A stretch of DNA of 64,000 nt from Escherichia coli (lineage in GTDB: Bacteria; Pseudomonadota; Gammaproteobacteria; Enterobacterales; Enterobacteriaceae), in NCBI RefSeq assembly GCF_003334255.1, contig NZ_QOWU01000022.1. One strand, 5' to 3'. This document shows positions 17,069-17,102 of this stretch, piece after piece. The translations under genes and the position numbers were made by a program. The stretch's first letter is position 1. Each line of letters starts with the position of its first letter. The notes under the pieces are model-generated. The model was not told where the DNA came from, made no database searches, and was given only the letters and a program-made list of their open reading frames with translations.

Positions 17069-17102
17069 TAAAAAGCGCCATCTTACGATGGCGCGGCTGG
17101 AA

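Follow-up and report, generated by a model that had tools for sequence, protein, structure and literature searches.

The genes ydcO and ydcL of Escherichia coli converge on a short intergenic region, which is occupied by the insertion sequence IS609 in strain K-12 and free of it in the 64-kb stretch of E. coli DNA analysed here (the window). The locus raises the question whether the window retains an original, never occupied site or whether the element was once present and has been lost, and what the hairpin in the remaining spacer represents. From the comparison of occupied and empty alleles we consider it very probable that positions 17069-17102 represent a polymorphic insertion site of IS609 (IS200/IS605 family) in its empty form, which bears a predicted terminator and whose IS-free state is ancestral.

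Results

The spacer between ydcO and ydcL

As outlined in Table 1, the sequence and the list of open reading frames place the two convergent genes only 34 nt apart. Gene names were taken from the RefSeq annotation of a genome which is 100% identical to the window over 16470-17700 (1,231 nt); strain UTME-7, whose RefSeq record names ydcO, differs from the window at 2 positions across 15000-19000. In the window the stop codon of ydcO is TGA (17066-17068) and that of ydcL is TAA (17103-17105, - strand), the latter being TAG in the K-12, B2 and E alleles. The region reads ...AACCGA TGA T AAAAA GCGCCATC TTAC GATGGCGC GGCTGGAA TTA CTTCTT.... The sequence-only reading had described convergent genes separated by 34 nt with a hairpin between them, and its coordinates and sequence proved to be exact.

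A tblastn search of the whole 64-kb window with K-12 InsQ gave a best E value of 1.7 and nothing at the locus. Blastn (word size 7) with the full IS609 against the whole window returned no match near 17069-17102, its only hit being a single chance 20-nt match at 147-167. The subterminal imperfect palindromes of IS609 (left end CCGGTGCG...CCCCATCCTTCAGGGCGGGG; right end CCACGTCCTTCAGGGCGTGGAGGATGTCAA) were also absent near 17069-17102 by blastn, and the 34-nt spacer is too short for any ORF, with no TnpA or TnpB coding there. Of functional elements, the spacer contains only the intrinsic terminator predicted for ydcL.

Table 1 Features at the ydcO-ydcL locus of the window and the basis of their assignment.
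Feature	Position	Strand	Basis
ydcO, BenE-family transporter, 390 aa	15896..17068	+	ORF list; UTME-7 RefSeq equivalent coordinates
G, second base of the ydcO stop codon (TGA)	17067..17067	+	Alignment of 13 alleles
IS609 target TTAT (ATAA on +), vacant	17068..17071	-	Seven IS609 sites; K-12 minus IS609
Predicted Rho-independent terminator of ydcL: stem 17075-17094, loop GTAA, TTTTTAT 17074-17068	17068..17094	-	Terminator scan, fold, conservation
Spacer without IS609	17069..17102	.	Sequence, ORFs, IS609/InsQ searches; equal 34-nt spacing in three other Escherichia species
ydcL, DUF3313 lipoprotein, 222 aa	17103..17771	-	ORF list; RefSeq annotation; allele alignment

The hairpin as a putative terminator of ydcL

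The hairpin consists of a perfect 8-bp stem (GCGCCATC at 17075-17082 and GATGGCGC at 17087-17094) closed by the loop TTAC (17083-17086), with a minimum free energy of -15.3 kcal/mol on the + strand and -16.2 kcal/mol on the - strand (z = -2.84 against dinucleotide shuffles). Read on the - strand, GCGCCATC-GTAA-GATGGCGC is followed by TTTTTATC, six of the eight pairs are G-C and the stem begins 8 nt past the ydcL stop codon. Together with TTTTTAT the hairpin was the best terminator-like match of the scan on this strand. It shares with the intrinsic terminators of Enterobacteriaceae the GC-rich 8-bp stem, the 4-nt loop and the U-rich tail directly after the stem. On the ydcO (+) strand, in contrast to such terminators, the A-tract lies upstream and no U-tract follows downstream; consequently, the hairpin is predicted to be at best a weak or partial bidirectional terminator.

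Conservation points in the same direction. Among 80 loci recovered with YdcL from GTDB species representatives (Enterobacteriaceae), 71 had a perfect hairpin no more than 60 nt from the ydcL stop codon and 53 a T-rich tail, and compensatory stem changes were observed in E. albertii (GCGCCGTC/GACGGCGC) and in Citrobacter (GCACCATC/GATGGTGC). Judged by structure and conservation, the hairpin is the putative intrinsic (Rho-independent) terminator of ydcL and is unrelated to IS609.

Hairpins also form the ends of IS200/IS605 elements, and in Escherichia sp. MOD1-EC7003 the TTAT at this position is followed by a miniature IS609-like element of 46 nt. Instead of being a terminator, the hairpin might be left over from a mobile element or repeat, whether a solitary IS609 end, a miniature derivative of it or a REP element. 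We regard this as extremely unlikely: the IS609 search had no match at the spacer, K-12 retains the hairpin outside IS609 on the ydcL side, and an equivalent hairpin with T-tract follows ydcL in species without the IS. Within the 64-kb window the hairpin is single-copy, only the self-match being found at up to 3 mismatches (chance expectation 0), and the Rfam scan of the spacer region matched no family. A REP/BIME or other dispersed palindromic repeat was rejected on the same two grounds.

Downstream of ydcL in E. albertii NBRC 107761 (L023 4170-6356), whose terminator stem carries the compensatory change, no YdcO match was obtained. Here a short segment similar to the 3' end of ydcO precedes an ORF of 667 aa, which equals the window ORF at 13234-15237 in length; this arrangement suggests that ydcO and sutR are deleted in this representative.

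IS609 in K-12, its target and its insertion point

The annotation of MG1655 gives the order ydcL (b1431), IS609 (1503161-1504908, 1748 bp), ydcO (b1433). In K-12, insQ thus maps between ydcL and ydcO and not elsewhere, as the sequence-only reading had stated. Its description of the element as a remnant does not hold, since IS609 of K-12 is full-length with both ends present and carries an intact insQ (tnpB) of 402 aa, annotated as a putative RNA-guided DNA endonuclease, next to a tnpA (yncK) pseudogene. The K-12 element is a full-length but non-autonomous IS.

For the definition of its boundaries the K-12 ydcO site was compared with IS609 at six other loci (yedK, yeaQ, yfeD, ytfB twice and nrdR). 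All seven sites read YTTAT/CCGGTGCG...GATGTCAA/N, with slashes at the element ends, and the left flank YTTAT is present in 7/7 occupied sites examined. The six copies outside ydcO read YTTAT/CCGGTGCG...GGATGTCAA/N, giving an element CCGGTG...GTCAA. K-12 minus the annotated IS609 (L001 5162-6909) equals the canonical empty alleles of B2 (E2348/69), E (O157:H7), ST70 and others, which read CCGATAATAAAAAGCG, over 80 nt (window 17046-17125). Taken together, the ends at the seven sites and the canonical empty alleles define TTAT as target and CCGGTG...GTCAA as element, inserted with no duplication. A defined tetranucleotide target and the lack of a target-site duplication are typical of IS200/IS605 elements.

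In window coordinates the insertion lies 3' of TTAT, between 17067 and 17068, at the end of the T-tract, and in occupied strains such as K-12 the left end of IS609 points toward ydcL and the right end toward ydcO. Compared with the K-12 site, the window keeps the TTAT target and both flanks without the element and without duplication, as expected for IS200/IS605; compared with the canonical empty site, it differs at 17067 and by four further SNPs within 80 nt. An alternative placement of the element at K-12 L001 5163-6910 gave a perfect window joint, but was rejected: six copies end in ...GTCAA and the empty alleles fit 5162-6909. The shifted deletion looked perfect because the window SNP at 17067 is the complement of the first base of IS609.

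Insertion at this point interrupts the stop codon of ydcO. The right-end terminus of K-12 IS609, TCAA, reads TTGA on the ydcO strand and provides a new TGA one codon later, whereby YdcO of K-12 carries one extra Tyr (...ADRNRY* instead of ...ADRNR* in the window). The annotated yedK and yfeD genes also stop inside the right end of IS609 at their sites, and TTAT has the complement ATAA, which contains a TAA stop. IS609 lands on stop codons and brings a replacement stop. Counted over all sites, the annotated stop of the convergent gene lies inside the right end at 3/7 (ydcO, yedK and yfeD), the TCAA stops being located at L003 2144-2147, L005 2144-2147 and, in K-12, L001 6906-6909.

Occupancy across E. 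coli and ancestral state

The ydcO-ydcL site was contiguous and empty in 2,111 of 5,426 complete E. coli genomes (~39%), and 3,265 (~60%) contained the junction between the IS609 right end and ydcO. At least 80% of the element was found somewhere in 4,859 of the 5,426 genomes, at up to 9 places per genome, and tnpA is intact in some of these copies. Presence or absence of IS609 here is an ordinary strain polymorphism of an already known type. The site is a clean presence/absence marker and otherwise matters little beyond strain typing.

The sequence-only reading had also taken the empty site as a sign of a non-K-12 background. The background was called correctly, but with 39% of complete E. 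coli empty the site discriminates weakly; the flank divergence of 1.3-1.8% between window and K-12 is the stronger evidence.

Copies of an IS can break or collapse short-read assemblies, and the MOD1-EC7003 contig (L019) ends soon past the site; nothing more specific speaks for the idea that IS609 is present in the strain of the window and was collapsed from the assembly. The chance of this is close to nil, as seventeen independent complete genomes have the identical 80-nt joint, the 2,111 complete genomes are contiguous at the site and the ydcO frame closes with a proper stop codon.

Three Escherichia species other than E. coli (L020, L021 and L022; 86-92% nucleotide identity) have an IS-free 34-nt spacer with TAA as ydcO stop codon, from which it follows that the empty state is ancestral for the locus. 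InsQ was found at 0 of the 80 species loci recovered with YdcL from GTDB species representatives. In the allele alignment the TTAC loop and the TAA stop codon of ydcL in the window match the outgroups, E. coli 042 and 2013C-4282; the state of K-12, B2, E and ST70 in the alignment of 13 alleles is a TAAC loop, GTCTGG and a TAG stop codon. We infer that the window lineage was never occupied by IS609. The earlier designation as an unoccupied ancestral site is thus sound for the locus, given the IS-free outgroups, and less certain for this particular lineage, whose spacer haplotype is also found in the occupied state.

In most non-Escherichia Enterobacteriaceae (most of L025-L098) ydcL and ydcO lie ~2 kb apart. 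The gap of the one such locus inspected, Citrobacter youngae (L025 4207-6170), contains two genes, whose products of 302 aa and 289 aa, judged by their translations, look like a membrane protein of the DMT/EamA transporter type and an AraC-family regulator, respectively. The direct adjacency of ydcL and ydcO seen in Escherichia was found elsewhere in few loci (L024, L041, L042, L076, L077 and L081).

The variant at 17067 and the possibility of secondary loss

The base 17067 lies immediately 5' of the IS609 insertion point on the + strand. Canonical empty sites, the flanks of K-12 and the outgroup species carry A at this position (TAA). As a result, the joint of the window is TTTTTAT-C-ATCGG against TTTTTAT-T-ATCGG at other empty sites, the C of the window being identical to the first base of IS609. 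Seventeen listed genomes have exactly the 80-nt spacer of the window, and the G variant tags a small clade. The window allele is composed of an outgroup-like spacer haplotype and, specific to its clade, the substitution TAA>TGA at the end of ydcO.

The most simple explanation of this change, which we favour, is a neutral point mutation, because TAA>TGA is the only stop-preserving change at this position, excision is precise and the shifted breakpoints share no microhomology. The opposing view is that the window lineage once carried IS609 at this site on a type-2 spacer like that of ECCNB20-2 and subsequently lost it. Three routes are conceivable, namely precise TnpA-mediated excision followed by a T>C change, aberrant excision displaced by +1 nt at both ends with the first base of IS609 left as footprint (the TTTTTATCATCGG joint), or replacement of a ~10-kb tract by that of an empty donor through homologous recombination.

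Several observations speak for such a loss. Over 16934-17126 the occupied alleles of ECCNB20-2 and M37H (L104 and L105) differ from the window solely by IS609 and base 17067 and have in common with it the otherwise rare C at 17109, and deletion of K-12 L001 5163-6910, i.e. with the +1 shift, yields the exact window joint. Each spacer haplotype was seen in the occupied and in the empty state. Furthermore, the site is part of a ~1.7%-divergent tract at 9.5-19.5 kb which lies between tracts identical to K-12, E. coli C and 2EC1, and beyond the ~17 contiguous (empty) genomes at at least 99.5% identity the nearest genomes over 24 kb are occupied by IS609, E. coli C included.

However, IS200/IS605 excision is precise by its established mechanism and the shifted breakpoints are without microhomology. 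With TAA>TGA as the only stop-keeping substitution at 17067, the coincidence with the first base of IS609 is unremarkable. Each of the six ydcO-site copies examined (6/6) has tnpA as a pseudogene, and IS609, single-copy in K-12, was static in K-12 mutation-accumulation lines, with zero transpositions (PMC5009759). The spacer states shared with the outgroups are equally explained by an old, never occupied allele, and the clonal frame is not recoverable from 64 kb of mosaic sequence. Secondary loss is consequently judged unlikely, though it is the most probable of the alternatives, and a lineage that was never occupied remains the preferred reading.

Trees of the ydcL-side and the ydcO-side flanks placed the window within E. 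coli proper, but were star-like with unclustered occupied alleles and gave no usable polarity. Across the window the differences are distributed as follows: 0-1 per kb from K-12 and E. coli C at 6001-9000 and 25001-27500, 0-1 per 500 nt from 2EC1 at 19501-22500, ~1.7% divergence from all three strains at 9501-19500, and 0-1 per 500-nt bin from UTME-7 across ~10-23.5 kb.

Relations among IS609 copies

In the tree of the IS609 copies compared (L001-L008, L099, L101, L104 and L105) the ydcO-site copies interleave with those at yedK, yeaQ and nrdR and are not monophyletic, differing among each other by at most 31 of 1748 nt. Two tnpA nonsense alleles (GR* and LIN*) are each common to copies at different chromosomal loci. 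With interleaved copies and shared nonsense alleles, single and multiple insertion events are indistinguishable. The sequence relations suggest that IS609 copies may be mobilised in trans or gene-converted between copies.

The miniature element of Escherichia sp. MOD1-EC7003 (NZ_PTRE01000219.1; L019 4205-4250) has the sequence CCAGTGCGCCTTATATCCCCGTCCTTCAGTGCGTGGAGGATGCCAA. Its position is again 3' of the TTAT that closes the ydcL terminator, and it is composed of the start of the left end, one hairpin and the tail of the right end. The neighbouring 3' end of ydcO is truncated, and the contig breaks off after another 242 nt.

Discussion

A possible role of InsQ

In the homing paradigm of TnpB (ISDra2, IS608, GstIS) the TAM corresponds to the transposon target and the guide to the DNA 3' of the right end. 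Compared with such homing targets, the canonical empty alleles read TTAT followed by TATCGGTTTCTGTCAG, that is, the predicted TAM and the 16 nt which flank the right end in K-12. By extension of the homing model, the guide of the K-12 copy would find a perfect target in the canonical empty alleles (TTAT+TATCGG...). The window is mismatched at the first guide position, with C instead of T, so that the predicted target pair consists of canonical TTAT-TATCGGTTTCTGTCAG and TTAT-CATCGGTTTCTGTCAG with its position-1 mismatch. The literature on IS609 and on insQ with TnpB yielded no functional study of E. coli InsQ or of its TAM. Provided that E. coli InsQ is an active RNA-guided nuclease, the locus gives natural pairs of occupied and empty alleles, including one with a mismatch at guide position 1, which could serve tests of TnpB-mediated transposon retention.

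The K-12 segment L001 6793-6919 (3' end of insQ, right end and 10 nt of flank) gave two sub-threshold Rfam matches, HgcC (22.2 bits, E = 0.021) and RAGATH-18 (25.4 bits, E = 0.067). Both are consistent with a putative TnpB omega-RNA whose 3' end enters the ydcO-flanking sequence.

One further interpretation combines these elements. IS609 would have entered and left the TTAT at the end of the terminator repeatedly, making this site a recurrent hot spot of the element, and TAA>TGA in the window would be either the footprint of a non-canonical excision or the mismatch at guide position 1. Haplotypes of mixed state, the non-monophyletic ydcO-site copies and the 46-nt element of MOD1-EC7003 are compatible with it. 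We nevertheless consider it very unlikely. Should it apply, the change at 17067 would not be neutral; in the case of a guide mismatch, InsQ with the omega-RNA of the occupied allele would cut the empty allele less, stabilising the empty state.

Further variation near the site

E2348/69 (B2; L016 16202-16264) has no intact hicA or hicB, at most a 63-nt piece of hicB being left; both genes are intact at the equivalent position in K-12, O157, ST70, UTME-7 and 2EC1. LP5-1 and PT62 (NZ_CP101866.1 and NZ_CP090448.1), which are closely related to the window, align with the 80-nt spacer query no further than ~17106 and have ~775 extra bp within the 24-kb region. Taken as separate observations, the break at ~17106 and the ~775 bp may point to a further insertion at the ydcL stop codon in these two strains.
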